Assembly (NCBI GenBank): GCA_965645245.1
Contig: OZ287073.1
Location: forward strand, 682,001 to 746,000
Length of the DNA: 64,000 bases
DNA from: Massalongia carnosa
Taxonomy: Eukaryota
Reading direction: 5' to 3'
Both the position numbers and the translations under genes were made by a program. Positions within the stretch are counted from its first letter, which is position 1. Every line of letters begins with the position of its first letter. Under the pieces are notes generated by a model. The model ran no database searches, had not been told where the DNA came from, and saw only the letters and a program-made list of their open reading frames with translations. Below, piece by piece: positions 4,192-25,564 of this stretch.

Positions 4192-4403
4192 TGTCAGGGT
4201 CCTGAGGTCACCTGACATCAGACTAGTATCGATTAGGTAATGTGCTGAGGAACCGACTTTTCAGGGGTTATATAGAACTCCGCCCGAGTAAAGCTTTTAG
4301 ACTTCGTCTGAAGATTTTGGTGTAGAACTAGGCTATTGAAATTGAACTCGTTTTATCCCTCACAGACTCGAAAATTTCTACTCTGAAAACCCCTATTATA
4401 ACA
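4192..4403 (+). repeat. 3' LTR of element A
   Basis: TG...CA termini directly after the PPT; TATA-like tatatag at ~4269. Confidence 0.8.
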
Positions 4404-5227
4404 GATTCTTTTCTGTAATTTTTCTGTATCGCGTCTGTTTTCATAAAATCTTCTCTATCTTTTTTCTTGTATGATTTTCAAAATACGATTTATTTTCTTT
4501 TTTTCTGTCGACGTTTGTAGTATTGTTCGTTTATTTTATGACTGCTGTAACGGTTCAACCAGGCGTGTTACGAACGGCAGGACCTACAGCGAACATAACA
4601 GGAGTCCCAGTTATAGTAGAATAGTATAACGGATTACACCGCTCTAATCTTAGGCAACATATGACGTAGTGCTATTCACCTTATCTAACCGAAAACGGAT
4701 CTAGCACTATGTCATGAAATCGAACCAACCCGATCCAGAATCAATCCCGCAGATGAATCTGACTAAGCTCCCGTTCTTCTATTCAGCTTAGTCGGAATCT
4801 CATTAACTAAATCGAGTTTAGACCCCTCTCAACGGCTTCAGGTCAAAGCTGTACCATCACCATCAAAGCGTACCAACGACAGGAGAACCTCGTCTCCACC
4901 TTTTATCGTCAAACACCTCGTCAAACCTTCGTGCCGTACGTCTCCTAATAGGGGGAGATGAACACTGATCGAATCTTTATGCAAAGGGGTTCGAGACAAA
5001 TATAAAAGGAAGGACAAGTTAATTAGATAGTTGACTCCTTGTCCGACGTCTTGTATAGCAATCTATCACCTAGCTATAGCCTTATTAATAAAGACATCTT
5101 GATCACCCAATCCAATTCCTAGGAACATTAGTTCAATCCCCTGCCCAGTCCTTGACATTACGTCGGACCTACATCGAAAGGTGCCTTTCATAGCACTAGC
5201 CCCTGTCCCCCCTCATATTTCACCATC

Positions 5228-6421
5228 ATGTCTTCGTCTTCAGAAGAGATGACCGTCCCCCAAAATCCTCTCATCGACGAGAACGTGAAGTTGTTTCAAA
5301 ACCAGTTCCAAACCAATCCTGAAGCATTCGTCGCGGAAATACGACGACTTCAAGACGAGGTGGCACGGTTGCAGGCCGCCCCAGCTCCCGACCCCCCTAT
5401 ACCCACTCCAGCATCAACCTCGTCTCCCTCGTTCGTTCCGGCAATGGACCCTCAGATAGCTGCCCTCCTGCAGCTCCTTTTGACCCGGAATTCCGAGTCC
5501 AAAACCGATCTTCGTTCCGAAAAACTTCCCGACATCTCCGAGTACGATGGAGATGAAGCCAAGTTGGACTCCTGGGAACAGAGCCTGATTCAACGGATGC
5601 ACGTTAATCATGATCGATACTCCACCGATGCCTCCAAGATTGCATCCGCGGAGAATCGGCTCACCATCGGGAAACGAGCTCACAACCTTATGAATGCGTA
5701 TCGAGTGGATGGCATTTGTAGACTCACCACCTTCTCCGAATGGCGTTCTGCTCTTCGCCTAGCCTGCGGCAACCCCTTCGAACAAGAGGATGCCCGTAAG
5801 TACCTTCGAGAAACCCTCAAGCAGGGCTCTCTGAGTTTCGAAGAGTACAACACTCTCTTCTCTCAGAAAAAAGACCGATCCAGAATGGAAGACGCTTCGT
5901 TGATTGATGCCATGAAGGCAAACATCAACTACTCCGTTCAAACCGCGGCCGTCCACTACCGAGTCCCCGGCACCAATCTGGAGCCAATCACCTTCGACGA
6001 GCACGTCGCAATGTGGTTAAGCACGGACCGGAAAATCCGTCAGATCCGTCATCTGGCACCCAAGGCCACGACTCCGGCCACATCAGCTCCCGCCAATCGA
6101 AGAAACGGCACCAACCTTCCTGCTGCCCCTTTCCCCCGCACTGTCGTCACGGGCACGGTCACCCCATTGATCCCAACCCCCGCCTTCCCCCCAGCTGGAG
6201 ACCCCATGGACCTAAGTCAGGCCATGGCGGCTGTCAAAGGTCAGTCGTTGAAAACCGAGGGAGTAAGGAAGATCTGCGAGAATTGGAACCTGTGCTTCTA
6301 TTGCAAATTGCAATACCTCGGGTCGGCCTCCGACTGTCCAAATAAGCCTACCAAACGCCTTCGCAACATGGAAGTCGTCTCGACCCTCACTCCTGAGACT
6401 GAAGACTCGGGAAACGTCTAG
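5228..6421 (+). CDS. gag: Gag of element B
   Basis: 397-aa ORF after the LTR/PBS; KLPDISEYDG and GDPMDLS motifs; degenerate knuckle CFYC...C; homologous to the Gag at 18516. Confidence 0.88.
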   Translation: MSSSSEEMTVPQNPLIDENVKLFQNQFQTNPEAFVAEIRRLQDEVARLQAAPAPDPPIPTPASTSSPSFVPAMDPQIAALLQLLLTRNSESKTDLRSEKLPDISEYDGDEAKLDSWEQSLIQRMHVNHDRYSTDASKIASAENRLTIGKRAHNLMNAYRVDGICRLTTFSEWRSALRLACGNPFEQEDARKYLRETLKQGSLSFEEYNTLFSQKKDRSRMEDASLIDAMKANINYSVQTAAVHYRVPGTNLEPITFDEHVAMWLSTDRKIRQIRHLAPKATTPATSAPANRRNGTNLPAAPFPRTVVTGTVTPLIPTPAFPPAGDPMDLSQAMAAVKGQSLKTEGVRKICENWNLCFYCKLQYLGSASDCPNKPTKRLRNMEVVSTLTPETEDSGNV

Positions 6422-9400
6422 ACTCTGCGCATCGTCGCGCGCAGAGCCCTATTTTAATTTCTTCTTGTCTGTTAGCCAACTCGTTCTCTCCCCCCTTCAA
6501 TCAAACACTCGTTTTTCCGCAGCCTCCGCTTTGGAGCTGTTTGAAACCGAAGAAGCGTTTCGAGATAGCCACCTAGTGGTATCATGTATCTTACGTTTAG
6601 GTAGATCTCGAATTCAAGCTCTCAATCTGATTGATTGTGGTGCATCTGGCTATGCATTCATTGGCAAGAAGTTTGCGCAAACTCACCAAAATCCCCCTTC
6701 ATCCCCTCAAATACGCCCGACGCCTTGAAGGCTTCGACGGTCAGCCGGCTCTGACTGGAAATATCACTCATGTGGCCGAGGTAATCATGGACTTAAACGG
6801 ACATGTAGAAAGATTATTCCTTTTCGTAAGAGGACTGAAAACCTACCCCATCGTCCTGGGACACCCGTGGTTGCGACGACATCAAGCTCTCGCTGATTTC
6901 GAGTCCAACTCTCTCTCCCTGTCTTCCTCTTTCTGCCTGGCTCATTGTAGCCCTCATCCAGTCAAGGTGAAGGCCTACACGGGCGAGAAATTCCTATCTC
7001 CTGCGGAAAGTCAGGAAGTATGGGAATCGGAAAACTACTCGTCCAATAGTCAAATCCTGTCCGAAAAACCTGTCCTGTCCGATAAAACCACGCCGCGCGA
7101 TAGTAAGACAACTTCTCTCGAAAATCAGGACATCAGTCGTATCGAAAAAGCGATTGAACAGGGCGACTCACCGAAAATCCGATATCGAAGTCCCTCTTCG
7201 TATCGCACCTCCACTCAGCGACATGCTGCCCAGCAGAATCGCAATCCTCCTGTTTTGGACGTCTGTGAAATCGGCGCCCTCAACTTCAACTATCTCGGAC
7301 GAAAAAAGAGTCACGAGATGTTTGCTCTCTCCTTGAAAGAAATCGATCACTTTCTCAGCCTGACTCAACCTGAACCTAAGCCTGAACCCAAACCCGAATC
7401 TCGCCTTCGTCAAGAGACTGACTGGGCACACTCGAAACCAACCTACCAACCCAACCCCCGGTCCAGCCCTAGTGAAAAGAAATATCACTTAGCCCTGTTC
7501 CGTATGAACCAGGCTCTGACACAGTTATGTTCAGTGACCGAACCCGAACCTCAACCCTTGACACTGCAATCATCAGTGACCGCCGAAGAACTGAACGCTT
7601 ATCGTGAGCGAAAGAACGTCGACCCAGCCCCCCTTCTACCCAAACAGTATCACGACTTTCTGGATTCTTCTCCAAAAAAGAATCGGACGTCCTGCCCGAA
7701 CACCGACCCTACGACCATGCCATAAAGCTAAAAGAAGGCTCTCCAATCCCGAATCAAGCTCTTTATGGCATGAGTCGAACCGAAATCGAAGAACTCCGAC
7801 GCTACCTTGATGAGAATCTGTCGAAAGGCTTCATCCGAGCTAGTAAATCCCCCGCTGCCTCCCCAGTCATGTTCGTAAAGAAGCCAGGAGGAGGACTTCG
7901 CTTCTGTGTCGACTATCGAGGCCTCAATGCCATCACGATTAAGAATCGGTATCCGCTTCCCCTGATCACCGAAACCCTGAATCGCCTGAGTCGGGCTAAG
8001 ATATTCACCAAGCTTGACATTATTTCAGCGTTCAATCGGCTCCGCATCAAGGAAGGAGATGAAGAACTCACCGCATTCAGAACCCGTTTTGGCCTCTTCG
8101 AATCCCTGGTCCTACCATTCGGCCTCTGTAACGGCCCCGCCTCCTTTCAACACTTCATCAATGATACTCTTCGAGAGTATCTCGACGACTTTTGCACGGC
8201 CTATCTAGATGACATTCTCATCTACAGCGAAATTGAAGGCGAGCATGAAATCCACGTCAAACGTATCCTCATCAAGCTGAGAGAAGCCGGGCTGCAAGTA
8301 GACATCACCAAATGCAAATTTCATGTCACAGAAGTTGCCTATCTCGGACTAATCGTAACCACCGAGGGAATCAAAATGGACCCCGCTAAAATCGAAACAG
8401 TAACTCATTGGCCAATACCGATCAATATGAATGATGTACAAAGCTTTCTGGGATTTGCTAACTTCTATAGACGATTCGTATACGGCTTTAGTAAGATAGC
8501 CGGCCCACTGACGAATCTAACCAAAAAGGAGGTCAGCTTTCAATGGACTGACAAATGTCAACAGGCATTCGAAACTCTAAAAAAGCTTTCACCTCGGAAC
8601 TAATACTGATGCATTTCGATCCCGATCGTCCTATCATCGTGGAAACCGATGCTTCGGACTACGTCTCTGGTGGTATCCTTTCTCAGTATGACAACGAGAA
8701 CGTGCTTCGCCCCATCGCATACTTCTCCAAGAAACACAACCCGGCCGAATGTAATTATGAGATCTATGACAAGGAACTCATGGCCATCGTCCGATGCTTC
8801 GAAGAATGGAGACCGGAATTGGAAGGTTCTGCTCACCCCATCAGCGTTATCTCAGATCATAAGAATTTGGAATACTTCGCTTCAACCAAACAACTCAGTC
8901 GTCGTCAAGCTCGCTGGTCCGAATTCTTGTCCCGATTTGACTTTAGAATAGTCTATCGACCCGGAAAAGCTGGTGGAAAACCAGATGCACTGACTCGTCG
9001 CTCAGGAGACCTCCCTAAAGAGGGGGATGAAACTGATGAAAGACATAAACATCAGCATCAAACCATCCTGAAAACTCATAACCTGGGCGACGAAGTGGCG
9101 AAAAGTTTCTTATCCACGATTATCCTAGCCCCCGCGTTCATCGAACAGGATCCCGAGTCCGTTGAACATGATCACGAGTTCATTGAACCTGAACCACAGC
9201 TGGATCAGCCTGCCGACCAAACCAATCCTGGCCAAGACCCGACCGACGTCCCAACTCAGCTGTTATGGGAACAAGCGCTGGAACAGGATCAATTCTCTCT
9301 GAAAGTTCTAGACATGCTTCGCAATAATGTCAGATATCATAACGGCATTCAGCTAGCCGAATGTGAAGATAAAGAAGGGATTCTTTATTTTCGAAACCGT

Positions 9401-10798
9401 CGATACGTACCCAATTCGGATCGGCTCCGTCTCCGTCTCATTCAACAGGCACACGACAGCGTAGCAGGTGGCCATCCCGGTCGTTCCAAATGCTACGAAC
9501 TAATGAATCGATCATACTGGTGGCCCAGTATGCATCAAACCGTCAAACGATTCATTCGTAACTGTCACACCTGTAGACGATCCAAACCATCCCGCCAACG
9601 ATACCAAGGATGGCTACGCCCTCTGTCCCCACCCGAACGTCGATGGCGTGACGTTTCCATGGACTACGTAGGTCCGCTGCCTCCGAGCACCTTCATGGGT
9701 ATAACCTATCGTTATATCCTCGTATTCATCGATCGCCTTTCCAAGATGCGACATTTCGTCCCCACCACCTCCATGGAGGTAGAAGAGGCTGCTAACTCCT
9801 TCTACCAAAATGTATGGAAATTACACGGTCTCCCAGACGCCTTGATTTCGGATCGAGGCACCCAATTCACCTCCGATTTCTGGGACATCATGTGTAAACG
9901 GCTTAGAATTGATGCTAGGCTATCAACCAGTTTTCATCCCGAGGCAGATGGCCAAACCGAGAGGGCTAATGCAACCATGGAGCACTATCTTCGGGCATAC
10001 GTCAATTACATGCAAGATGACTGGGCCCAGTACTTACCCGGTGCCGAATTCTCCAGCAATAACACCGACTCCTCCAGCATTCTCGCCTCTCCCTTCCTGG
10101 CTAATTATGGACAACACCCCAGGGTAGGATTCGAACCCAAAGAGCCCCTTCCGCAAGACCTGAGCGCCCAGGGAATCGCTAACCTGATCGCCGCCAATCG
10201 ATTCGTAGACAAGATGCGAGACGTAGACACTCACCTACGAGAAGAGATGTTGATCGCGCAGGCCTCATACGAATCTTCCGCCAATGAGAACCGCCGTCCC
10301 TGTCCTCGTTATCTTGTAGGAGACATGGTGTGGCTGAACACCCGAAATATCCAGACAGCCCGTCCGGCAGCCAAACTGGACGATCGAAATGTCGGTCCTT
10401 ACCGAGTCTGTAAGGTGTTCGCCAACCCTCTTGTTGTTCAACTGGAACTCCCTGACACGGTTAAAATTCATCCGGTCTTTCATGTAAATCTGCTACAACA
10501 CGACGCAGACGACCCCCTCCCAGGACAAATTCCCGAGCTTCGCGACCCAATAATAGCCGAAGATGGACAGCGAGAATGGTATGTCAACAGCATTCTGAAC
10601 TCGAAACTGGACAGACGTTATCAACCTCCGCTTCTCAAGTATTTCGTCAACTGGGAAGGACATACCCCCACCTGGGAGCCATTTTACCTACTAACCAACT
10701 GTCAACAAGCTCTGGACGAATTCCACGAAGCCTATCCTGGTGCATCCGGCCCACATCTCACCCCCTGTTCCATTCCTCGATGTCGCTGTCATGAATAA
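6409..10798 (+). pseudogene. pol: pol of element B (PR-RT-RH-IN-chromo) broken by about four 1-nt frameshifts
   Basis: LIDCGA protease, YLDD, ETDASD, HHCC, integrase core and chromodomain spread over ORFs 6465, 6631, 7770 and 8555; colinear with the intact pol at 19793. Confidence 0.92.
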
Positions 10799-11419
10799 AA
10801 CTGCTTCGCAGGAGCTCAGCTCTTGAAAGGGGAGCTACTGTCATGAAATCGAACCAACCCGATCCAGAATCAATCCCGCAGATGAATCTGACTAAGCTCC
10901 CGTTCCTCTATTCAGCTTAGTTGCCTCAGTACCTCAGACGTGCGTGGCTCAATGAGCCGGCTAAGCCCCTCCGGGTTAGCCTATTTTCGCTAAGCCCCTT
11001 CGGGTTAGCGTCGCTGCTGACTAACATCAGTGCGATAGCACGTCTGAGCGCAAAACTCAAAATTACGGCCAGATCCGCGTAATAAAAATTTTAGCAGTGC
11101 AACCATTCCTTTTATGGATTTAATACAATGATTAGGGTCGTATTAGTTTACCAGAGACTGTATTTTATACCAAAAACGCACCTCTCAAGATGGATGACTC
11201 GATAATCATGTGTTATAACTACTGTCAGGCTAAGAAAAGCGATGTGAAAGTCGATTAAGTGATAAATTGTTCGCTTTCGCTCAATTTTGAGGTTGATGAA
11301 CTGATTATTTTCATGTGGCGCGATTACATTGAGTTACAAAGATCATGATGATATGAATAACGACGGCCAATCAATGGTATTGTATGATTTATCTAGATTG
11401 AAGCTATCTGACGAAAGCC

Positions 11420-14097
11420 ATGGCTCTTGTCGGGGGCCCCTCCTCGCCACTTACCGACCTACGGACAAGTCCCTTGACTCCCGCCGGTGCGCTCAAGCGG
11501 CCCCACCCATCGCCGTCAGGCAGTAATGATAGCTCACCCTCTTCCTCCTCCCCTCCTGCCTTACCTGAAAAAAAATGGAGGCGCGAAACGCCACCGCCGG
11601 CGCATATCAGATTACGACAAGCTGGTTGAGGTGCTTAAATTTCTGAGCTCTCTAAATTGGTCGGTAAAAGATTTTTTATCAACACTTTGTAAGAATCGAG
11701 CCCGTCATAGTATGCGAAAGGCGCAAGGCCAGCTCTTCGATTTTGTCTATGTCGATATTGTGCGGCAAGAAGACTTTTCAAGCCTCATTGGGCCTGGTAG
11801 AATATCCACTATCCTTCGCGAGAGAGGATGGGTTTGGGCCGCGGATGTGCTTCGTGAAGAAATCAAAGCTTTGGCAGATCACGCAGCCTTTGGCCCTTTC
11901 CAGCCGCCCTCTGCGACAGTCGAGTTTGGGACCTTGGAGGCTATTAAACTTGCTGCATCTGCCGCCAAGCAGTTGGCGCCACGATGGCTTGAGCTAATTG
12001 ATAGTGTTTGTCGCGAGGCTCGCCCGCAGGAACCTCTCGATGTGACGTTGGATTCTCCCAGCGGCCGGCACACCGTTATATTGGCAATGCTTTGTCACAA
12101 ATTGCGACCAAATAAGGCGACCAATATTCAGTCCGTCTTAGGCCTTTATATTTATCAAGGTGGGGCGAGGCGGCGAGTTCTAGATACACTCTGTCATTTT
12201 GACCTGACGATGTCATATACTACCCTGCAGCGGCGCATGTTGTCCTTGATTAAGGAGGCCGAACGAAAGGTTCAGATGCTAGGACAAGGCTCAAACATGA
12301 TCTTGACATACGATAACTTTGACTTCGCAGAAGGTAAACGAGGAGAGCGCACGGGGGATAATAGAGACGTCAGATCAATCACTACCGCTCTAATTTTCCA
12401 GGGGCAAGGATTCGATGCCGGCGCTTTGAGGCAGGATATGTGGCGCCCCGCCACGCATCTTTTATCAGCTGAAAGAATTGCGCGAAAGCTGGAGACTGGT
12501 GATCTCGAGATGCAGGTGAGTTCAATACAGGACGAGGTGTATATACCGCGCTCAATCGCTAATGCACCGCGTACCTAGATTCGTCTTCATCATCTAGAGT
12601 CAGCGATTCGAGCGCTTTATGGCCCAGAGATCGGCGACGTTCAACTTCCTTGGTCGACTGCAATGCCCGTGCTGAATAAGATGAAAAAATACAAGACCAA
12701 TTACATTCCTATCAAACCAGTCATGAAGGATGAGAGCACAACATCTAATAATATTCAAATATTGGAGGATATATTTGTGCGACAGTTCAAGTTCAAGGAG
12801 GATGACTCGACGTTTGCGAGCGTCATTCGGCTTATCTATGGTGACCTCAAGACATGGTCGAGAATGCAATCTGTCAAGGAATTACGTCGTGGGATATCGG
12901 AGCAATCTTTCGATCGGTTCGACTGGATTTTACCGGGATTAGGGTTATGGCATCTTCGCTTTAACATGCTGCAGCTTATTCATAAAATACATTGGAGAGG
13001 CCCAGCCGGTTGATCCTTCGACTCTTCAATATGCCGCCGATCGGTGGGGCCGCGCTCGTGTCGTGCAGCCGAACGATTTCCAGGCCTTAGAGGATCTGAT
13101 CATTCAGAGCTATCAAGCTAGAATCGTTGGGACGTGGATTAGGTTTTTACGAAAGGATGGATATGCTCCGCAGCGAATCGAAGCAACTATTTCGTGGCTC
13201 ACAGCGCAGACTTGCGGGCAGGATGGCACCTGGATGAATATGTTGGGCAGGATATCTCGCAAACTTCACGCGGAATTACCCTCAACGTCAATAGATATGC
13301 TTCCTCCAACGCTTGATCAACAATTTCGGAATCATCAGAACTTCTGTGATCACGTTGAATCGTATCTAACACTTCGATACGCAATCAAATATGCGGATAT
13401 TGGACTACTTCGTCACGCATTGCGCCACGCAACGGTGATCTTTCAGGCAAGCGTAGCTGGCACCCCGAAATATGCGCAAGCTCTTCTATACACCCTTCAT
13501 GCGATTGATTCTTCCGCAGCGACCATAAGGCTACAGGAAAGTATTTTAATGAATAGTCTTGTCAATTTACGCGGTGACGAAGAGTCGAGTTTTGAGACTG
13601 ATCGGCTTTTAGAGATACTAAACAATAACCTCAAGACGTTCCAGCACGAGCGATCTTATTTTTCAAAGTATAGTGACACCTTGCTCGAGAACTGGGCACT
13701 CAACGGTCCATATCTTATGAAGCTCAAAGAAATCGTTGAGTTTTACTTTGGAAGAGTCAACTCTTCAAGGCATCCAGCAAAATCGGCCGCAGAGGATGTG
13801 TGGGGCATGGCTACGGCACTAGCGCATAAATCACTCTGTAAAAGAAGCTATGATCGATTTTCAACTAATCCAACAGCTAATCTTTATGTTGAGGGATTGA
13901 AGAAACTTGGAGAAAATGTATTAAAATACAATCAGCAGTATCTTTCCGAAGAAATTTCAAAAGAAATTTCAACAGACGACCTTGAGGGTAAGTATGAAGC
14001 CGAGCCCGATTTTGTCAATGAAACAAAGCAGGTCCCCGACAGCCCTGTCATTTCAATGGCCCGTCTCGAGATATCCGGCGGTATGTTTTTTGATTAA
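11420..14097 (+). pseudogene. Academ/DUF6589-like transposase, one intron (12516-12578), two frameshifts
   Basis: Motifs LTYDNFD, LIYGDLKT, PGLGLWHLRFN, FETDRLLE. The GTGAG..GCTAAT..TAG intron joins ORFs 11487 and 12663 in frame; frameshifts near 11570 (A run) and 13000. Start codon inferred. Confidence 0.72.
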
Positions 14098-14156
14098 ATC
14101 ATCGATACCACGAGATAGCCTAGTCATGTAAATCCGCGCCGCGCGGCTTTACAGAG

Positions 14157-16331
14157 TCAGAGGTAGCGGACGGGGCACTTTCTTTCTTGTCTAGATCGTG
14201 TCGGAGGAAGGGCCATGGGTACATTCAGCGACAACGCTTCCATAGGATCTCGAGGCGCTTTTTTGGTCTTTGATGCCTTCATCGATGATTTAAGAGCATC
14301 AACATTGTCAACAACGAGCGCCGCATCGGAGATATTGTGATTAGGCGCAGGATTCTCGCCCGATGGCTCCGTGCTCTCGCTTTCCTTCGAGACTTTCTTC
14401 TTGACCGCATTTCGCTTTTTAAAAACCTTTCTCGACATATATCCTTGTTTGATCATCCAGTTTTTCCTCCGTTCCTCAAATTCAATACTGGCGGAGTTGC
14501 ATGTTAGGCTGGGTAATCGTTTTCTCTTTATGTCGTTGTGTCGTTTCCATTCCTCGAACATGTCTCCCTCGTCTAATCTCATTGCTTGACCCCGCTTTAA
14601 AATTTCTAAAAGCTCGGCGCCGTAGGGCCTAATACCAGTCCATGTGTTACCAATCCATCGCCGCATGGTGGGCTCGTCCACAATCTGATCCGCCCAAGTG
14701 GTCAAAGAATTCAGTACCTCATCGGGCATTATCAATGATGGGAAGTATCGCATATGTGAATTTGGGAACTTTTCCTGCGCCTTGGCCTCCCTCCATTCTC
14801 GAAGTTTAAGGGTGAACCAAGGCCGCCTAGACGAGTCACGCTCGGCCGTTCTATTTAACATCTCATTGGCGGCTGTTGATGTCTGAAAACTTGGATCGCA
14901 AATTGAACAGCAAGGTTGCGGCTTAACATAGGCCGACGTTGGATACACTTTATCATTGAAGAAATTCAAGCCAATACCTCGAACGCAACCATCTGAAGGC
15001 ACATTGATTATCTCCCAAAGACCCGGTGGCATATCTCGTCGCCGATCAGCATCCTTTTGATTGATGCGGCGTTTACTGGCCTTGGATTCAATCTCGATTC
15101 CCGCGTCATATCCGTCCTGTTCGTCCATTTTTGATCCGCTTCTTGGACCCATGCACCAAGAAGGATGCAAAAGAGTAAAATGCGCCTGTCCTCGACCGCA
15201 ACGCAAAGCACGACCTAAACGTTGGTATAGCTTCGCCATTGACGAGGGTAGCAGCCATTGCGTAACTCTCATAACGTCTGGATTATCAATACCAAGCCCG
15301 TATGCATCCGTTGCGATCAGGATTCGAGGAAATTACATTGATTCGAGGGCATTTCGAAGCGAGCCGCAATCCTTTCTTTGTCTTGGGTGGCCATGTCGGA
15401 AAAGAAAGGCGCGACCCAACTAGCAGCCTCAATTGGATAGGACAATTGATTCATCCATACTTTCATTAGCGCACACGCCTTTTTGATAGATGAAATTGAA
15501 TCCATGAAGATAATCGTTTTCGGAATATCAAAAGGACTCTCAGCCCGTGTTGGTAAAAGATGTTGAAGATCGATCATGCTGTTCATAGGCCGCTGTAGAC
15601 TGCTTGTCTGTATGTATATCTCTGGACGATCAAGCGCTGTTTGAATAACAGTACTTTCGTTATCAAAGCCACAGCGATCTTTAACGCTCTCTAGGGTTCT
15701 TGGATCCAGCGTTGCAGACGCACCCAGAAAAGGAATACCATCTGGTAATCGTGTACGAAGCACACCGAGATTGAAGTATTCGGGCCGGAAATCTCGCCAT
15801 TCGGATACCAGATGCATCTCATCAAGAGCTAAAAGACATAAATTCAAGAAGAAACTTGGATGCCTCAGAACCTCCTGATTAAACAGCTTTGACGTCGCTA
15901 TCTCTGGGCTAGTAAAAACTATTCATATTAACGAGTAAGTTTTTATATTTATCTCAATCATAATTTGAATACACACCATGCGTATAATTGTTTTCACGAA
16001 TTAACTTTAAATTAGAAGAATTATTACTATCACCGTCCAACACGAAAGGCTTGCATCCCTCGATAACGCTCAATTTCTTGCACTGTTGAGCTTCTAAGGT
16101 CTTGAGAGGCATGATAATTAAAGCGATCTTAAGACAAGAGAACATTAATGGCATAGCTTGAAAGATAATACTCTTTCCAAATCCAGTCTTGGCGATAAAT
16201 ATCAGATCCTTTTGATCTTGTGCTAAAGTCATGATAGCGTCAACTTGCTCATTCTTTGGATAAAAGCCGAATTTACTTAAAATCACGGTCGTCACCTGCT
16301 CGCGAGTTATCGACGCTATAGGATCGTCCAT
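14157..16331 (-). pseudogene. RecQ-like SF2 DEAH-box helicase, one intron (15919-15976), one frameshift near 15330
   Basis: Walker A AKTGFGKS, FTSPE, DEMH, SAT, ATDAYGLGID, QRLGRALR, Cys cluster C..CCSIC and an HRDC-like LREWR segment. Confidence 0.88.
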
Positions 16332-18515
16332 TTCGATGTGTTCGCGAGCGATATTCGACGATTCGCGAGTTGGATTCTTAGCCCGCAAAACGCACATCAA
16401 GCAAGTTCATCACATTCAACGATTTTAGGCTTTCGAAAACAACGCTCGGAGGATCAGATTAATGATCAGAAGCGCCGACAATGAAAAACTGGAGCTAGTG
16501 ACCCGTTGAGTCTGCTGTGGTGGTGTCGAAATTTCGAGTCAAAGTCGAGTCCTCGTCGCGAGATCGATATTGCGACTCAATTTTGCATCGATATGTAATT
16601 AAAATATTGATTAATCGATAGAATGTATATCAAAGCATCATTTCTATTATTACATAATTTATGAAATGTCGTTGCGCGTTGTTGATTCCGCCGTCAACTT
16701 GATTCTTGATGATTTTTGAGGTTAAGCCAAAAATTTGTATGAGCGCGCACCAAAATAAGCCGGATCTGACAAAAATACAGAGTTTTGCGCTCAGACGTGC
16801 CGCCCGTAGCATGCGTAGTCAGCTAAAGGGCCGCTAACCCGAAGGGGCTTAGCGAAGATAGGCTAACCCGGAGGGGCTTAGCCGGCTCATTGAGCCACGC
16901 ACGTCTGAGGTAACAGCTTAGTCGGAATCTCATTAACTAAATCGAGTTTAGACCCCTCTCAACGGCTTCAGGTCAAAGCTGTACCATCACCATCAAAGCG
17001 TACCAACGACAGGAGAACCTCATCTCCACCTTTTATCGTCAAACACCTCGTCAAACCTTCGTGCCGTACGTCTCCTAATAGGGGGAGATGAACACTGATC
17101 GAATCTTTATGCAAAGGGGTTCGAGACAAATATAAAAGGAAGGACAAGTTAATTAGATAGTTGACTCCTTGTCCGACGTCTTGTATAGCAATCTATCACC
17201 TAGCTATAGCCTTATTAATAAAGACATCTTGATCACCCAATCCAATTCCTAGGAACATTAGTTCAATCCCCTGCCTAGTCCTTGACACACTAACCGTGCG
17301 ACCGAGATAAATCCGATGGACCGCACCAGGAGCTACGCTCCAGGTGCGGCTCACCTCTATGACGCTATCATCTCCATGACGCATTTCTCAAACTATTTAC
17401 ATTATATCCATTGATTGACCCTTTCAAAATGAAGCTATTCAAAATCAAAGGCTGACGTTCATCTATCCAGCTTTCGGCCTTTTTACCCACAAAGCCAAAC
17501 CGTTTAGCTATCGCTTTTCCATAGAGAAATATTTTCTTTTGTCTAGCCGTATCAGCACGCTTTTGACGACCCTCCTCCCTTTCCACCTCTTAGGTACGAT
17601 GTAGGTGATTATGCCTCACATCTCGAACGGTAACGATTCCTTCCTTCTGAACAACGGTGCCAGCAAGCTTTTTTCGGGCCCTTTTAGCTAATGCAGCTGT
17701 GTGTGTGGCTTGCAAGTCGCGTTGCGTCAATTCTAGTAAATTAGCGTTTGCAACCGACCCTTTGATAAAACGTCGCATTCTTTCTGGAGTAATTTCTTCA
17801 TTATTATTCATTCGCTGAATAATGTTTTCCCCTTCCTTAGCAACGTCTTTGGGCTTTTTGGGGGTATGAGGTAGAATTATTGTCTCCGAAGATGATATTG
17901 GTAGTGGTGGTAATGCCGGATTTAAAGCACGAATTTTGGTCAAGACTACCTCCGGATTGTAAGGTATCAACCCAGTTTTTTCCCAGGCTGATTTGATAGT
18001 AGATGATTTTGTCACGGAATCGCTTCGCACCCTCCCGCTTGTCCTGATCGGGTTAGTATTTAACAGGGCCCATTGCTGTCATCCATCGTGCTCAGGCGTT
18101 CTTCTGCCGCCCTCAGCGCACTATCAATCTCCTACAATCCGCATCCAATCTCAACGTCTCCACTATCCAGGCTTATGACTGAGAGTGCTTCAGCACAGAT
18201 AAAGGCGGGATAGGTCAAAGCAATCATGTTAAGGAAATTAGTACAGGAACAGAGACGGGGCAAGTCGAGAATAGGAGAGTTGAAAGCCATGGCTATAAAG
18301 TCTGTGGTTTCCCAGGTGTTTAGAGCTCTTCATCGGACGTCTTGTATATTATTCTCTACTTCTAGTTTTAGCATATCTAGATATCCGTTCTGCAAGATAG
18401 AGTCTTGTATCTCTCCAGCCCTCCCCTGACATTACGTCCGATCTATATTTTTTTGTGTTTTTCAAAGCACTATTCTTCCTTTCTCTTTTCGTTTTTTGCC
18501 TATAGATAATCAGTC

Positions 18516-19754
18516 ATGTCAAACCAAGATCAAGGACAACCTATGCCCGAGCAGCCCATTGAAAGCACAGATGCACAGCTTGCCTACGTGCAGGCCAACC
18601 CCCTTCCATTCCTTCAAGAAATGGAGAGATTGCAAAACCAAATAGCAAAATTGGAACAGGAAGCCCAAGCACGACAAGCCTCCACCATCGTTACACCACC
18701 TTCCACGTCTTCCCCTTCTTCCTCTCTCAGTCCCGAGTTCCTTACTTCGATCGTGGCCGCCGTAACAGCTGCTATGTCCAAGAACCTCTTCACAGACAAA
18801 CCGGCCAAGTCAGAAAAGCTGCCGGACATTGCCGAATACGACGGCAACATGGACAATCTCGATTCATGGGAACAGAGTCTGATACAGAGGATGCATGTGA
18901 ACCATGACCGCTATCCTACAGAGAACGAAAAGATAACCTATGCCGAATCCCGACTTACCATCGGAAAAAAAGCACACAACTTGATGAACAGGTATAGAAA
19001 GGATGGCTTGTGCGCGCTGACAAGTCTAAAAGATTGGCGAATGAAATTGCGCCAGGCATGTGGCAATCGCTTTGAGGAAGAAGACGCACGCACCTATCTT
19101 CGTGACACCCTCAAACAGGGTACGCTAAGTTTCGAAGAATACTATAACCTCTTCACACAGAAGAAAGAACGATCGGGAATGGAAGATGCCTCTCTAATCG
19201 ACGCCATGCGATCAAATGTCAACTACGCCACACAGGCAGCCGCAATCTCGTGGCGAAAAACCGATGGGTCCAGGCCCGTTACGTTTGACGATCATGTGCA
19301 GATGTGGTCCGACACCGACTGGGACCTGAGGCAGTTAAAACATCGCCATTCTCGCACCACCCCTGCTGCTAATGCTAGCAATCCTCCGACCACTAGACGA
19401 GGAAACGCCCCTGCCACGACCAGCACCTCCAACACGACCACACGCATCACCCCGGCCGTCACCACACCTGCTGCCCCTGTCGCCGCTGCCGGCGGCGATC
19501 CTATGGATCTGAGTTCAGCAATGGCCGCCGTTCGAGGCCATAAGTTGACGGATCCAGGAGTCCGTAAGATCTGTGATGACTGGAAGCTATGCTTCTATTG
19601 TCGACGTCAACATCCGGGTACCATTGGTGACTGCCCGAATCGAAAGACAACCGCGGTTCGCTCCCTTGTCCTATATGAGGGATCATCAAATGCACAATCA
19701 ACGCCGATATCAACGTCACAGATATCTAAGGTCCAGGAGGTGGAAAAAGCTTAG
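18516..19754 (+). CDS. gag: Gag of element C
   Basis: 412-aa ORF; GDPMDLS motif; CFYCRRQHPGTIGDC knuckle. Confidence 0.92.
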   Translation: MSNQDQGQPMPEQPIESTDAQLAYVQANPLPFLQEMERLQNQIAKLEQEAQARQASTIVTPPSTSSPSSSLSPEFLTSIVAAVTAAMSKNLFTDKPAKSEKLPDIAEYDGNMDNLDSWEQSLIQRMHVNHDRYPTENEKITYAESRLTIGKKAHNLMNRYRKDGLCALTSLKDWRMKLRQACGNRFEEEDARTYLRDTLKQGTLSFEEYYNLFTQKKERSGMEDASLIDAMRSNVNYATQAAAISWRKTDGSRPVTFDDHVQMWSDTDWDLRQLKHRHSRTTPAANASNPPTTRRGNAPATTSTSNTTTRITPAVTTPAAPVAAAGGDPMDLSSAMAAVRGHKLTDPGVRKICDDWKLCFYCRRQHPGTIGDCPNRKTTAVRSLVLYEGSSNAQSTPISTSQISKVQEVEKA

Positions 19755-22700
19755 TCTCTGCGCATAGTCGCGCGCAGAGACAACCAGATTTCTTGATTTC
19801 TTCTTGCCTGCTGTCCACATCGTTTACACCGCCGCTCATGTCTAGCAATCGTTTTTCGGCGTCGTCTGCTCTTACTCTTTTTGAAACTGATGAGACATTT
19901 AGAGATAGTCATATGGTTATCTCTTGTATATTACGTCGTTTTCAAACCAGAATAAAAGCTTTGATTCTTGTGGACAGTGGTGCATCTGGATATTCCTTTA
20001 TTGATCAAGATTTCGCGCGTTTTCATAACTTCCCCTTACACCAATTGAAATATCCTAGACGACTTTCCGGCTTCGATGGCCAGCCAGCATTGACTGGCAA
20101 CATAACTCACATCGCCGAAGTTACCATGGACCTAAATGGGCATGTAGAAAAGCTCTTTCTTTATGTAACAGGATTAAGACATTACCCCATTGTTTTGGGC
20201 CACCCATGGCTTCGCAGACACGGAGTCATTACAAACTTTTCCAACAACACCTTGTCCCTATCGTCCCCCTTTTGCCTTGCACACTGCTGTCCTTCACCTG
20301 TAATGATGCAATCAGCCACCACGAAAGAAGAAGAATTCCTTATGCCTGCCGAAAGTCAGAAGGTATGGCAATCAGAAGAAACAGCTCTGCAGACCAGTCA
20401 ACCCGAGCTCTCCATCTTTGAATATCAAAAAGAAGATGGCCCAAGCCGAATACTCACCGCCATTCAGAGAGGCACAACTCCGAAAATCAGACCACGATCA
20501 CAAAGCTATGTACGTGTCAGACCCCAATCAGTTCGGACACTCAGTCCAATCCAGAAACCCAATCAGACTCAGATATCCAGCTCAGTTCAGACAATCAACT
20601 CAACTCAGACATCCTGCAGCAATTCGTCACAAATTTGCGAAGTCAGCGCAGTAACTTTCGATCGCCTTGCTAGAAAGAAAAATCACGAGATATTTAGTAT
20701 CTCACTTCATGAAATCGATCGCTTTTTAGGAATAAAAGCACCTCCCAGTCCCAGTCCCAGTCATTCCGACCCTAGCTCATCCATTAGCCTAATAGCGAAG
20801 CAGGCCTTTCCACCATTGAATCCGAAGGCCTGCCCTAGCGATAAGGATATGCATATGACCATCTGCAAAATAAATAAGGAGCTAACCTTAGAAACATCCG
20901 TAACTCAAGAAGAGCTTGAAGCCATTCGGGAACGAAAGAACGTTGACCCGAGCACCATCTTACCGAAACAATATCACGAATTCCTAGACGTTTTTTCTAG
21001 AAAAGAATCTGAAGTGCTTCCAGAGCGCCGGCCCTACGACCATGCCATCAATTTGAAAGATGGCTTCCAACCTCCAAATCAAGCGTTATACGGCATGAGC
21101 CGCGACGAAATAGAAGAACTCCGTCGGTATTTAGACGATAATTTGGCCAAGGGGTTCATTCGTGCCAGCCGTTCGCATGCGGCGTCTCCTGTCATGTTCG
21201 TGAAAAAGCCCGGAGGGGGCCTTCGCTTCTGTGTTGATTACAGAGGCCTGAATGCCGTCACTATCAAGAATAGATATCCGTTGCCATTGATAGCCGAGAC
21301 CTTGAATCGCTTGTCCAGAGCTAAAATATTTACTAAATTAGATATAATAGCAGCCTTTAATCGCCTACGCATAAAGGAAGGCGACGAAGAACTCACCGCA
21401 TTCCGCACAAGATTTGGTCTATTTGAGTACCTGGTAATGCCTTTCGGGTTGTGTAATGGACCCGCCTCTTTTCAGCACTTTATCAACGATACTCTGCGAG
21501 AGTATCTGGACGACTTTTGCACCGCATATTTGGATGACATTCTGATATACAGTGACGTTGAATCAGAGCACGAGATTCACGTTAAAAGAATTCTGATCAA
21601 ACTGCGTGAGGCAGGCCTTCAAGCAGACATCACTAAATGCGCATTTCATGTGAAAGAAGTTTCATATCTAGGTCTAATCGTGACCACAGAGGGGATAAAA
21701 ATGGACCCTGCCAAAGTCGAAACTGTTATTAATTGGCCCACTCCCCAAAACGTGAAAGACGTACAGAGCTTCTTAGGGTTTGCGAACTTTTACAGACGAT
21801 TCATTCTGAGGTTTAGCATGATTGCTGGCCCATTAACCAACCTCACACGAAAAGACGTGAAATTTTTATGGACTGATAAATGTCAGCAAGCTTTCGACAC
21901 TATGAAGAGAACCTTCACCTCAGACGTAGTCTTATTGCACTTCGATCCAGACAAGCCAATTATCGTGGAGACAGACGCCTCTGATTATATATCCGCAGGA
22001 ATTCTTTCGCAATATGACAAGAACAGTGTTCTAAGACCTATTGCTTACTTTTCCAAGAAACACAATCCGGCGGAATGTAATTATGAAATCTATGATAAGG
22101 AGTTAATGGCAATCGTTCGGGCTTTCGAAGAATGGAGACCCGAATTGGAGGGTTCCGCTCACCCAATCAATGTAATCACGGATCACAAAAATCTAGAATA
22201 TTTCACGTCTTCCAAGCAATTGAGCCGCCGTCAAGCCCGCTGGAGCGAGTTCTTATCCCGATTTGATTATAAAATAATCTATCGCCCTGGAAAAGCAGGT
22301 GGGAAACCAGACGCCCTAACAAGGAGATCAGGAGATCTCCCTAAAGAAGGGGATGAAACAGACGAACGCCGACAATTTCAACATCAAACTGTCATCAAAT
22401 CGCATAATATCGATGAAGAAGTTGCCCGAGACCTGAATTTATGCCCTGCTATAAGATTAGCACCCGCTTTCCTAGAACAAGAAGTCATAAGGCTAGCACC
22501 TGCGTTTTTAGAACAGGAACACGAACTCGATGAATCCGAAAATCTAGGCAACGAAGATGATAATCATAACGACGAACCTCAACTCGATCCAGATTCAGAT
22601 CAGATCGCCTCTGACAATGACCCGATGGATATCCCTACCGACGAGCTTTGGAATCAAGCCATTCAAAGAGATCGCTTTGCCCCGAAAATTCTAGTAATGC

Positions 22701-24187
22701 TGCAAAACGGAACCAGATATCACAGCGGAATTCAGTTGGCTGAATGCGAAGACAGGGATGGTGTTCTTTACTTCCGAAATCGACGATATGTACCAAAATC
22801 AGACAGATTGAGACTCAGGATTCTGCAATTAGCCCACGATAGTGTGGTAGGTGGCCATCCAGGACGTGCGAAATGCTTCGAGATTATCGGCCGCTCCTAT
22901 TGGTGGCCCAGTATGCATAAGACCATTCAGCAATTCGGGCGAAACTGCCATGTGTGTAAACGGTCTAAACCATCGCGGGAAAGATATCAAGGATGGTTGC
23001 GACCGTTGCCTCCGCCAGAACGCCGCTGGCGCGACGTATCCATGGATTATGTCGGTCCTCTCCCCGTAAGTACCTTTATGGGAGTCACCTATCGCTACAT
23101 TCTTGTATTCGTTGATCGATTATCCAAACAAAAGCATTACGCACCTACCGTAACGATGGAAGTCGAAGAAGCCGCAACAGCTTTTTATTGGTATGTATGG
23201 AAACACCATGGCCTGCCAGATGTTCTAGTTTCTGATCGTGGATCCCAATTCGTATCGGACTTCTGGCAAACATTGTGCAAACGACTAAAGATTGATGCTC
23301 GTTTATCAACCAGTTATCATCCTGAAACAGATGGTCAAACGGAAAGAGCAAATGCGTCAATGGAGCATTACCTTAGGGCTTATGTGAATTATATGCAGGA
23401 TGATTGGGTCGAGTTTCTTCCTGGCGCTGAATTCGCTGCCAATAACACTGATTCATCTAGCACTCTGGCATCGCCATTTTTAGCAAATTCAGGGCAACAC
23501 CCCCGCATGGGCTTTGAACCTGCAGAACCTCTACCGGAAAATATATCGACCCAGGCCCGGGCAAATCTGATTGCTGCTAATAAATTCGCTGACAGGATGC
23601 AGAAATTAGATTCTCACCTGCGTGACGAAATGCTAATTGCCCAAGCCATATATGAATCCAACGCTAACGCAAATCGTCGTCCCTGCCCTCGTTATTCTGT
23701 CGGAGATATGGTCTGGTTAAACACAAAGAATATCCAGACTGCTAGACCTACGGTGAAATTGGACGACAGAAATATTGGACCATATCGGGTGAATCGTGTC
23801 TTCCCGAACAATCCTTTAATCGTACAGTTGGAACTCCCAGAGACTGTCAAGATTCATCCTGTTTTCCATGTCAATCTCTTGCAACACGACCCTGCCGACC
23901 CTTTGCCCGGTCAACACCCAGCACCGCGTGATCCTGTTATCGCAGAAGACGGGCAACGGGAATGGTATGTAAACAGTATTCTGAACTCAAAATACGATCG
24001 CCGTTATCAGCCGCCTCTGTTGCAGTATTTCGTCAATTGGGAAGGACATACCCCTACTTGGGAACCATTCAACTTCCTAACTAATTGTCAGCAAGCCTTA
24101 GACGACTTTCATTCTGCTTACCCTGCCGCCGCCGGACTACACATCACCCCATGTACAACTCCCCGCTGTCGTTGCCAAGAAATTTAG
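19742..24187 (+). CDS. pol: Pol of element C (PR-RT-RNaseH-IN-chromodomain), -1 frame relative to gag
   Basis: Uninterrupted ORF of over 1460 aa: LVDSGA, YLDD, ETDASD, HHCC, DDE core, chromodomain; -1 frame is open from the gag end. Confidence 0.96.
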   Translation, partial: GKSLVSAHSRAQRQPDFLISSCLLSTSFTPPLMSSNRFSASSALTLFETDETFRDSHMVISCILRRFQTRIKALILVDSGASGYSFIDQDFARFHNFPLHQLKYPRRLSGFDGQPALTGNITHIAEVTMDLNGHVEKLFLYVTGLRHYPIVLGHPWLRRHGVITNFSNNTLSLSSPFCLAHCCPSPVMMQSATTKEEEFLMPAESQKVWQSEETALQTSQPELSIFEYQKEDGPSRILTAIQRGTTPKIRPRSQSYVRVRPQSVRTLSPIQKPNQTQISSSVQTINSTQTSCSNSSQICEVSAVTFDRLARKKNHEIFSISLHEIDRFLGIKAPPSPSPSHSDPSSSISLIAKQAFPPLNPKACPSDKDMHMTICKINKELTLETSVTQEELEAIRERKNVDPSTILPKQYHEFLDVFSRKESEVLPERRPYDHAINLKDGFQPPNQALYGMSRDEIEELRRYLDDNLAKGFIRASRSHAASPVMFVKKPGGGLRFCVDYRGLNAVTIKNRYPLPLIAETLNRLSRAKIFTKLDIIAAFNRLRIKEGDEELTAFRTRFGLFEYLVMPFGLCNGPASFQHFINDTLREYLDDFCTAYLDDILIYSDVESEHEIHVKRILIKLREAGLQADITKCAFHVKEVSYLGLIVTTEGIKMDPAKVETVINWPTPQNVKDVQSFLGFANFYRRFILRFSMIAGPLTNLTRKDVKFLWTDKCQQAFDTMKRTFTSDVVLLHFDPDKPIIVETDASDYISAGILSQYDKNSVLRPIAYFSKKHNPAECNYEIYDKELMAIVRAFEEWRPELEGSAHPINVITDHKNLEYFTSSKQLSRRQARWSEFLSRFDYKIIYRPGKAGGKPDALTRRSGDLPKEGDETDERRQFQHQTVIKSHNIDEEVARDLNLCPAIRLAPAFLEQEVIRLAPAFLEQEHELDESENLGNEDDNHNDEPQLDPDSDQIASDNDPMDIPTDELWNQAIQRDRFAPKILVMLQNGTRYHSGIQLAECEDRDGVLYFRNRRYVPKSDRLRLRILQLAHDSVVGGHPGRAKCFEIIGRSYWWPSMHKTIQQFGRNCHVCKRSKPSRERYQGWLRPLPPPERRWRDVSMDYVGPLPVSTFMGVTYRYILVFVDRLSKQKHYAPTVTMEVEEAATAFYWYVWKHHGLPDVLVSDRGSQFVSDFWQTLCKRLKIDARLSTSYHPETDGQTERANASMEHYLRAYVNYMQDDWVEFLPGAEFAANNTDSSSTLASPFLANSGQHPRMGFEPAEPLPENISTQARANLIAANKFADRMQKLDSHLRDEMLIAQAIYESNANANRRPCPRYSVGDMVWLNTKNIQTARPTVKLDDRNIGPYRVNRVFPNNPLIVQLELPETVKIHPVFHVNLLQHDPADPLPGQHPAPRDPVIAEDGQREWYVNSILNSKYDRRYQPPLLQYFVNWEGHTPTWEPFNFLTNCQQALDDFHSAYPAAAGLHITPCTTPRCRCQEI

Positions 24188-25564
24188 TCAACTCGCAGGA
24201 GCTCGTTCTTGAAGAGGGGAGCTACTGTCACGGAATCGCTTCGCACCCTCCCGCTTGTCCTGATCGGGTTAGTATTTAACAGGGCCCATTGCTGTCATCC
24301 ATCGTGCTCAGGCGTTCTTCTGCCGCCCTCAGCGCACTATCAATCTCCTACAATCCGCATCCAATCTCAACGTCTCCACTATCCAGGCTTATGACTGAGA
24401 GTGCTTCAGCACAGATAAAGGCGGGATAGGTCAAAGCAATCATGTTAAGGAAATTAGTACAGGAACAGAGACGGGGCAAGTCGAGAATAGGAGAGTTGAA
24501 AGCCATGGCTATAAAGTCTGTGGTTTCCCAGGTGTTTAGAGCTCTTTATCGGACGTCTTGTATATTATTCTCTACTTCTAGTTTTAGCATATCTAGATAT
24601 CCGTTCTGCAAGATAGAGTCTTGTATCTCTCCAGCCCTCCCCTGACAGATTTGAATGTCTTTGTACGAAATTGATTGAATGCGGCCAGAAAACCCAGACC
24701 ATGAAGTCAACGTCACCCAACCGAATGGCGTTGTCAACCGCTTCAGCATGATAATGTTTCATTGGCTGCAAAACACCAACGTCCAATGGCTGCGTCAAAT
24801 GGGTTGAATGGGGGGGTAATCTGAATAAACAGATCTTATTTTCTTTCGAATATTCCCAAAATTCATACGTTAGATGAGATCCATATACATCCAACAAAAG
24901 AAGCCTAAACGCTCCTTTTTGAACCTTTTTTGAATCAGCATTAAAATGCTTTAACCACTCTAATGCTAGAAAATCATTCGAATAGCCGCTATCGCTTGTA
25001 GTCAACACGATATCATCTTTCAAATCATTCTCTAAGGCCCATTTGTGAAGTATGTTGACCCCTTTCAAAATCAAAAAGGATGGAACGCTTCCGCCAACTC
25101 CATTGATGCATTCGACCGAAGTTATATAGTCTCGATTGTCTGGATCAGCGATCATAATTCGTTTATGTGATGATAGTGTCACCACCAAATGGGTTACCCC
25201 ACAGCCAACTCGAAAGCCTATCTCATCCATATTCCATATATCATCTGGAGTTATACCAAGAAGGGCTACAGTCGATTGAAATGAAGAGAAATAAGTTTGA
25301 ATATCCGTAACAATGTGAGCGTTTTTCATTTCGGCTGCTAACGGCTTGGCTTTTTGCATGAAAAATTGGGGATTTCTTTTCAAGAATCGTCCGGTCCAGG
25401 ATTTTCCTACGCGGGTGAGAGAAGATGAAGACGAGGAAGGATGTTGCAATTGCATCAAATAATTAGCTGCACCGCGAATCAATAACAATCTCATTGATAA
25501 TTCAATATCATCAAGAAATTCAATATACTCCTTCAAGGCTAGTTCTTGTGCAGCAGACAGCCTC

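Follow-up and report, generated by a model that had tools for sequence, protein, structure and literature searches.

A probable AcademH-like transposon with a DUF6589 transposase and a RecQ-like helicase gene in Massalongia carnosa

AcademH is reportedly the helicase-encoding lineage of the Academ superfamily of DNA transposons, and its helicase is RecQ-like. Excerpts of PMC10045372 give target-site duplications of 9-10 bp for AcademH and of 3-4 bp for AcademX, and state that AcademH encodes a helicase and AcademX a nuclease. A second source, likewise in excerpt (PMC10799480), assigns DEAD and Helicase_C domains to AcademH and places the lineage at low copy in Basidiomycota, Ascomycota and Mucoromycota. 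According to the excerpted text of a third (PMC5751038), Pfam in 2017 contained nothing that matched the RNase H domain of Academ, for which a profile of its own was then made. Here we describe a 5,993-bp element in a 64,000-nt stretch of Massalongia carnosa DNA (GCA_965645245.1, OZ287073.1, positions 682,001-746,000, forward strand), referred to below as the window. The element is bounded by terminal inverted repeats (TIRs), carries a DUF6589 gene and a convergent helicase gene, and interrupts the 3' long terminal repeat (LTR) of a Ty3/Gypsy element, Gypsy B. With a probability of roughly 0.75, we read it as an autonomous cut-and-paste AcademH-like transposon, belonging to the helicase-bearing Academ lineage, whose insertion into Gypsy B, itself young, was recent. 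The family is on this reading a new member of that lineage, a known but little-studied kind of transposon that is reported from ascomycetes too. It is probably active and recently mobile.

Insertion site, termini and coding capacity

The element occupies positions 10921-16913 and splits the 3' LTR of its host Gypsy into 10839-10921 and a part that runs from 16914 onward. The features of the insertion are listed here with the evidence for each in brackets.

4710-5157 (448 nt), + strand: intact 5' LTR of the host Gypsy, used as empty-site control (LTR alignment).
10913-10920, no strand: left copy of the target-site duplication, CAGCTTAG, or 9 nt with T10921 counted (empty site in the 5' LTR).
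10921-16913, + strand: whole element, 5,993 bp, with termini 5'-TTGCCTCAG ... CTGAGGTAA-3' (TIRs, junctions and contigs with other flanks).
10921-11015, + strand: left TIR, including 8 nt (10922-10929) that are absent from the right end (inverted repeat; the 5'-TTGYCTCAGTTCTCAGACGTG end is also found in a related metagenome locus, L012).
16827-16913, - strand: right TIR (inverted-repeat comparison).
16914-16921, no strand: right copy of the target-site duplication (LTR comparison).

When the insert and one repeat copy were removed, the joined segments 10839-10921 and 16923-17370 aligned to the 5' LTR without gaps and with three mismatches, at 4777, 4892 and 5146. The two LTRs are thus 99.3% alike, and the preliminary description, which was made from the window's letters and had estimated about 3 differences in 448 sites, was correct in its count. 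The uninterrupted target site stands at 4784-4792 of the 5' LTR, in ...TATTCAGCTTAGTCGGAATC..., and the 9-nt sequence CAGCTTAGT is repeated at both junctions of the insert. The gapless alignment and the exact empty site bear out the earlier proposal that the insert splits the 3' LTR of Gypsy B and that the 5' LTR preserves the pre-insertion site. Because it is located inside an LTR of Gypsy B, the element is also, as had been suggested, the younger of the two.

The TIRs were described as long, and they are: the arms 10930-11015 and 16827-16912 span 86 nt at 97% complementarity, a second inverted block pairs 11038-11077 with 16761-16800, and in a global alignment the similarity reaches approximately 160 nt. 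A search of the window with a 40-nt TIR pattern gave these two sites only (0 expected by chance), and no further copy or fragment of the element was found within these 64 kb. The left end carries 8 nt (tgcctcag) that have no counterpart on the right, and the boundary had therefore been placed at 10922. Three observations move it to 10921. First, contigs with unlike flanks from public sequencing runs begin to match at 10921 (n = 5 in run X1, 4 in X2 and 1 in X4). Second, the metagenome locus L012, which has a near-identical twin (L013), has ends 5'-TTGTCTCAGTTCTCAGACGTG... and ...CTGAGGCAA-3' in a motif search; its left end equals that of the window, surplus 8 nt included, so that in the window it is the left end that is complete and the right end that has lost 8 nt. 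Third, a locus of another family, L011, finishes in ...CTGAGGTAA, nine letters identical to the window's right end. Across families, the termini follow the consensus 5'-TTRCCTCAG...CTGAGGYAA-3'. T10921 therefore most likely belongs to the element, in which case the duplication is 8 bp (CAGCTTAG) and not 9. L012 is flanked by an unambiguous 8-bp duplication, GACCTGAC. Of the duplication first described, 9 bp or 10 bp with one mismatch, the 9-nt repeat itself stands and the length is the less likely one: with two insertions readable, the window and L012, the window's duplication is probably 8 bp.

Short joints that suggest internal deletions (10965 to 16815, 10980 to 16833 and others) came for the most part from a single run, where they matched at 90% likeness over short flanking sides; they hint at derivatives resembling miniature inverted-repeat transposable elements (MITEs).

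At each end of the element a 21-nt motif is present twice, at a distance of 29 nt, and the pair is flanked by an 11-nt sequence on one side and the reverse complement of that sequence on the other. Folding gave the following structures.

10933-11048, + strand: structured left end, with an 11-bp stem of 10933-10943 and 11038-11048 and small hairpins that include the motifs at 10960-10980 and 10989-11009.
16790-16909, + strand: structured right end, with an 11-bp stem of 16790-16800 and 16899-16909 and motifs at 16833-16853 and 16862-16882.

As single strands, the left end folds with -35.8 kcal/mol (z -6.6) and the right end with -35.5 kcal/mol (z -4.3), and in neither case was any of 200 shuffles as good. 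The ends of L012 fold likewise, with z -3.4 and -2.5, the latter equalled by 5 of 200 shuffles. The design, an 11-bp stem around two to four small hairpins, is retained in a family whose transposase is about 45% identical, and the structure may be functionally relevant.

Two convergent genes lie inside the TIRs, each with one intron predicted from sequence (63 nt in the + strand gene, 58 nt in the - strand gene), in agreement with the preliminary description.

11420-12515, + strand: transposase exon 1, with its ATG at 11420, the first catalytic block (YDNFD) at 12309-12323 and a surplus A at 11568 that breaks the frame (open reading frame and run contigs).
12516-12578, + strand: predicted transposase intron, 63 nt, GTGAGT..CTAAT..TAG (size-matched gap at the same spot in a metagenome family).
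12579-14097, + strand: transposase exon 2 (DUF6589), with YGDLKT at 12837-12854, FETDRLLE at 13591-13614 and TAA at 14095-14097; GG is missing after 12993 (Pfam and contigs).
15977-16397, - strand: helicase exon 1, with its ATG at 16397-16395 and Walker A (GFGKS) at 16170-16184 (Pfam, PDB and NCBIfam matches).
15919-15976, - strand: predicted helicase intron, 58 nt, GTGTGT..ATAG (sequence signals).
14157-15918, - strand: helicase exon 2, with DEMH and the aromatic loop at 15776-15823, motif V at 15285-15314 and motif VI at 15201-15224 (profile and PDB matches); in its C-terminal part a four-cysteine cluster at 14898-14987, an HRDC-like domain at 14568-14855 and the stop at 14159-14157 (model and sequence); one T is missing after 15332 (run contigs).

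We aligned contigs of four public runs (X1, X2, X4 and X5, which bear four organism labels) to this part of the window. Compared with the window, the contigs lack one A at 11568 but have an additional GG after 12993 and an additional T after 15332, so that the homopolymers measure A8, G4 and T3 where the window has A9, G2 and T2. The first two readings are found in all four runs and the third in three of the four, X5 being without coverage there. With the contig readings the frames are open, giving a transposase of 871 aa and a helicase of 727 aa, and the family's genes are therefore intact. The breaks in the window are probably assembly errors or copy-specific homopolymer differences and not a trait of the family.

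It is possible, though on balance unlikely, that the indels are instead real mutations and that the window holds a dead copy of a family whose functional copies lie elsewhere. At two further positions, 13328 (a conserved Arg in the window, Gln in the runs) and 15809 (silent), the window also departs from what the contigs of each of the four runs read, and is thus a different sequence; moreover, contigs drop rare variants, so that a single mutated copy would stay invisible. Yet all three indels fall in homopolymer runs, the typical pattern of long-read assembly error, the TIRs and the remainder of the element are at least 99% identical to the run contigs, and the host Gypsy, with its LTRs 99.3% alike, likewise has its pol spread over overlapping frames.

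The transposase and its place among DDE transposases

Pfam recognised DUF6589, the domain anticipated for the + strand gene, in both halves of transposase exon 2 (3.8e-26 and 2e-31), and it was the only domain in all 20 long relatives scanned. An exhaustive search with the first 511 residues, the intron read through, returned 719 relatives at E<=0.001, of which 58 reached E<=1e-30. The named relatives, from metagenome-assembled genomes (MAGs) of two ascomycetes and one Mortierella, are called 'hypothetical protein', in keeping with the hypothetical gene that gene callers had been expected to report here. The Atlas clusters of relatives are mostly from Basidiomycota, with one from Mucoromycota. 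One paper that names DUF6589 regards it as a possible virulence or regulatory domain, without link to a transposon.

For the fold we modelled P0065, a homologue of 611 aa, from an alignment that included the window's transposase pieces. Its identity to the three pieces is 26-33% in one alignment (A1), and that to the C-terminal piece is 35% in two others (A2/A3). The model has a predicted local distance difference test score (pLDDT) of 89 and a predicted template modelling score (pTM) of 0.88. The first 12 rows of a Foldseek search with it were Hermes and the P element, at E values of 1.6e-3 to 1.2e-2, none of them below 1e-3. A second-look structural alignment gave Hermes a Z score of 10.1, followed by the P element (9.7), ISCth4 (8.4), RAG1 (8.2) and Transib (5.2); its top 32 rows were all DDE transposases or RAG1, and the next, unrelated row had a Z of 4.5. 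Acidic residues of P0065 lie in strand 1 (D80), just after strand 4 (D218) and at the start of a helix (E460/D462/E466), and a helical insertion of approximately 200 residues precedes that helix, between the second Asp and the Glu. Their equivalents in the window's transposase are D298, D454 and E705/D707/E711. On this model, DUF6589 is most likely the core that carries the catalytic site of the transposase, and it adopts an RNase H-like DDE fold interrupted by a large helical insertion. The matches of the homologue to DDE transposases (Z 5.2-10.1) thereby favour the prediction that the + strand protein has such a fold.

We then compared the family with the RNase_H_Academ profile from the supplement of PMC5751038, of which an excerpt of 108 of the 465 nodes was examined by eye and by ungapped scoring. 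The most informative nodes in this excerpt are D3-N4-[W/F/I]5-D6, G190-D191-Q192 and D450-x-x-l-E454. The DUF6589 family has the blocks Y-D-N-F-[D/E/Q], Y-G-D-Q-K-T and E-T-D-R-L-x-E, in the same order. Within the excerpted nodes, the window's transposase agrees with 8 of the 9 that carry high information, and its catalytic residues are spaced by 156 and 257 residues (the latter from D454 to E711), compared with 188 and 263 nodes in the profile. Blocks of the profile were also scored as ungapped matrices on 17 full-length proteins, which all belong to one family and therefore do not amount to 17 independent trials. The matrix scans gave the following.

Nodes 1-6: 13 of 17 proteins with the best match on the catalytic site.
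Nodes 185-194: best match on the catalytic site in 6 of 17, the window protein not among them.
Nodes 450-457: best match on the catalytic site in 4 of 17.
Nodes 16-24: none on the family site.
Nodes 424-449: none on the family site.
Nodes 450-465: 0 of 17 on the family site.

In the window protein, nodes 1-6 scored 9.3 against 5.6 for the runner-up, a value reached by 0.8% of 2000 shuffles. At the level of motifs, homology with Academ transposases thus appears to have good support.

Like AcademH, the element would combine a DDE transposase with a separate superfamily 2 (SF2) helicase (DEAD, Helicase_C) as its second gene. TIRs are present in both, and so is a fungal range of Ascomycota, Basidiomycota and Mucoromycota. 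The duplication differs, being reported as 9-10 bp for AcademH and reading as 8, possibly 9, bp here. Together, the DDE transposase, the second-gene helicase and the catalytic blocks that fit the partial Academ profile argue for the AcademH-type identity originally proposed. AcademX, the Academ lineage with an XPG nuclease, shares the catalytic motifs, the profile that we compared having been built largely from Academ transposases; its reported duplications are 3-4 bp, compared with 8-9 bp here. We rejected AcademX on this length and on the finding that neither the window's proteins nor the 20 long relatives scanned gave a Pfam match to XPG. Word-index protein searches, aimed at longer proteins or confined to 1849-5000 aa, found nothing, and so no fusion of DUF6589 to XPG; an Atlas search that excluded PF20231 gave no usable match; and the supplements of PMC10799480 contain no mention of Academ, DUF6589 or PF20231.

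An alternative is that elements with DUF6589 and a helicase form a separate, so far undescribed lineage akin to hAT and P elements, with 8-bp duplications, and that the matches to Academ motifs are remote or convergent. Both hAT and P elements make 8-bp duplications, as does L012 and probably the window, and their closest representatives in structure, Hermes and the P element, head the matches to the model: they share the RNase H fold with an all-helical insertion domain, at only 10-12% identity. The reported 9-10 bp of AcademH, the profile blocks that gave no signal and the paper on DUF6589, with no transposon in it, point the same way. Against this, the three catalytic blocks fit the most informative Academ nodes, similarly spaced and in the same order. 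A second gene that encodes a helicase is, by report, what marks AcademH, and hAT and P elements are not known to carry one. The fungal range of the relatives, from Ascomycota MAGs and Mortierella to clusters of Basidiomycota and Mucoromycota, also fits the reports on AcademH. Pfam at E<=0.1 gave DUF6589 only, with neither the C-terminal dimerisation domain of hAT elements nor a BED finger, and hAT itself was rejected on these grounds. We consider a separate lineage of this kind improbable, and place the element with AcademH.

KolobokH was examined as well. Kolobok elements make TTAA duplications and have a THAP domain. In the excerpted text of PMC10799480, KolobokH is, like AcademH, a DNA transposon group with a DEAD/Helicase_C helicase. 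The duplications here are CAGCTTAG and GACCTGAC, not TTAA, and THAP was not seen, so this candidate was rejected.

The helicase, related families and the surrounding window

Pfam found DEAD and Helicase_C on the - strand gene, which had been described as having all RecQ motifs, a zinc cluster and an HRDC-like tail. We searched it as three exon queries, numbered 1 to 3. With query exon 2, 36 of 38 PDB matches at E<=1 were RecQ-family proteins, the best being E. coli RecQ (1.1e-11) in an alignment that spans the DExH motif and the RecQ aromatic loop. WRN was the best PDB match of query exon 1 (3.7e-5), and query exon 3 matched motifs V-VI of RecQ4, BLM, RECQ5 and WRN and also of DEAD-box proteins. 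The RecQ family model TIGR00614 (recQ_fam) was the top NCBIfam match for all three, at colinear profile positions, with 30.7, 54.1 and 35.7 bits; the homologue from L011 scored 85.6, and the curated cut-off of 219.8 was not reached. Four cysteines (452, 477, 478 and 481) were identified by eye at the RecQ zinc position. RecQ_Zn_bind matched the intact L011 homologue at E 0.0012-0.0047, with a score short of its cut-off. Residues 160-255 of query exon 3 (pLDDT 60-83) aligned with HRDC domains of Rrp6 (Z 9.4), D. radiodurans RecQ (9.3), E. coli RecQ (9.2), WRN (8.5), Sgs1 (8.2) and BLM (8.2). A winged-helix (RQC) domain was not detected in the helicase, in which the HRDC-like part follows the zinc site after only about 15 residues.

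The PDB and NCBIfam matches, the cysteines and the HRDC-like segment support the description of the protein as RecQ-like, though divergent: its SF2 core includes the RecQ aromatic loop and is joined by a four-cysteine cluster, a putative zinc site, and by an HRDC-like domain. In common with cellular RecQ proteins (E. coli RecQ, WRN, BLM/Sgs1 and RECQ5), it has motifs I-VI and the aromatic loop beside DExH, and it may share the zinc site and the HRDC fold. It differs from them in scoring far lower on the family model and in its lack of a detected winged helix, and its gene lies within TIRs and travels with a transposase. With scores so far below the RecQ cut-off, a close relationship to any one cellular RecQ can be set aside, and the scores gave no support to the refuting case named earlier, a helicase that groups with cellular Sgs1/RecQ orthologues.

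A scan of metagenome contigs yielded 15 loci with transposase relatives. Twelve of them (L001-L009 and L012-L014) form one degenerate family, in which most pairs are 85-92% alike and the few pairs at 99% are near-duplicates; L010 and L011 form a second family, and L015 is a short fragment. At least 1 kb of sequence follows the transposase match in 12 of the 15 loci, and 11 of these 12 carry a convergent helicase, although they represent two families only. The exception is L002. All three helicase exons were found in six loci, and L011 has an open helicase frame of 569 aa next to a transposase 33% identical to that of the window. Related families thus retain the helicase, in line with the preliminary description. 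Because gene order, termini and subterminal motifs are common to three families, the window's and the two from metagenomes, the pair travels together and the helicase belongs to the element, as its own accessory protein. The metagenome loci are mutated, with 30-33% G+C; a repeat search found no TIRs in them, and their ends were located by motif search. No relative of the element was found in scans of genome contigs and viral contigs.

Two features of the larger metagenome family stand apart. Its loci contain many stops of the TGG-to-TGA/TAG and CAA-to-TAA types; we did not call repeat-induced point mutation (RIP), since TpA/ApT is 0.45-0.52 and the classical indices are not RIP-like. In addition, L012 has about 5.5 kb (489-6034) between its left terminus and the transposase, compared with 0.5 kb in the window; several copies share this segment, which contains no long open frame and could represent either an insertion nested in the element or additional cargo.

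Sampled words of the element occur in 13 of the 21 listed runs (11 studies), and at least half of the words occur in seven, which bear four organism labels and that of a lichen metagenome. Most pieces in the four aligned runs are at least 99% alike to the window. X1 and X2 also contain a second, diverged relative, with contigs about 92% alike (window 10986 and 14887-16853) at far lower depth, which cannot be read as copy number; its variant subterminal motif resembles that of the metagenome family.

That the locus is merely a host RecQ gene and a neighbouring host gene caught between inverted repeats by chance, two ordinary intron-bearing genes as a gene caller would report them, with relatives named 'hypothetical protein', is refuted by the exact empty site in the sister LTR and by identical ends with other flanks in several runs, and is further at odds with the recurrence of gene pair and termini in two other families and with helicase exons that score 30.7, 54.1 and 35.7 bits where RecQ requires 219.8.

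Several points weigh against our reading of the element or limit it. The fold model is of the homologue P0065 and not of the window's transposase, and a Z of about 10 for a largely helical model of 611 residues is moderate by the tool's own note. The Academ link is based on 108 of 465 profile nodes, scored without gaps; nodes 16-24, 424-449 and 450-465 gave no signal in the matrix scans, and the block of the second Asp (nodes 185-194) is not the best match in the window's own protein. Placement relied on published descriptions and the partial profile in place of Repbase AcademH sequences. The window's duplication reads as 8 or 9 bp and that of L012 as 8 bp, compared with the 9-10 bp reported for AcademH. 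In the helicase, the model of query exon 3 is poor overall (pLDDT 44) and usable only at residues 160-255, and the Pfam HRDC match is not significant (E 0.28). Finally, the window copy, with three frame breaks and R at 13328, differs from the run copies and may be dead.

The window is rich in transposons at 1-36300 and 54705-55484. It contains at least four Ty3/Gypsy elements (39-4191, 5156-10798, 18510-24187 and, on the - strand, 31169-36270), the first Gypsy frame also having an HTH_Tnp_Tc3_2 match, and two pogo-like DDE_1 fragments (24565-25572 on the - strand and 54705-55484). The gag-pol of the host Gypsy is split over four overlapping or adjacent + strand frames (5156-6421, 6631-7725, 7608-8603 and 8552-10798), consistent with assembly indel errors like those at the transposon's three homopolymer sites. 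A ClpB/Hsp104-like gene lies at 50659-53286 on the + strand (AAA, AAA_lid_9, AAA_2 and ClpB_D2-small). It consists of three abutting stop-to-stop frames in one reading frame, and its in-frame stops at 51487-51489 and 52450-52452 could reflect introns with lengths that are multiples of three, errors or a pseudogene.

Proposed mechanism and significance

In the mechanism that we propose, the transposase would bind the paired 21-nt subterminal motifs and cut at the 5'-TTG...YAA-3' ends, which would then be joined to a target cut with an 8-bp stagger. Our best guess is that the helicase may act while the transposition complex is assembled or released, by remodelling the ends with their several hairpins; alternatively, it could process the donor gap for templated repair. 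That the helicase is a working part of transposition, opening or extruding the ends so that the transposase can bind and cut, is a tentative and rather doubtful proposal. If true, it would add to DDE cut-and-paste transposition a helicase-dependent step that has not previously been described.

For DUF6589, which Pfam lists as a domain of unknown function, the model would provide a working name, transposase catalytic core. The element also shows that RecQ-like genes found in fungi can be carried as cargo by transposons, which is relevant to annotation and to fusions of host and transposon genes. As a seemingly intact and recently mobile family with an exact empty site, the element may therefore offer a practical system for probing the role of a helicase in DDE transposition.

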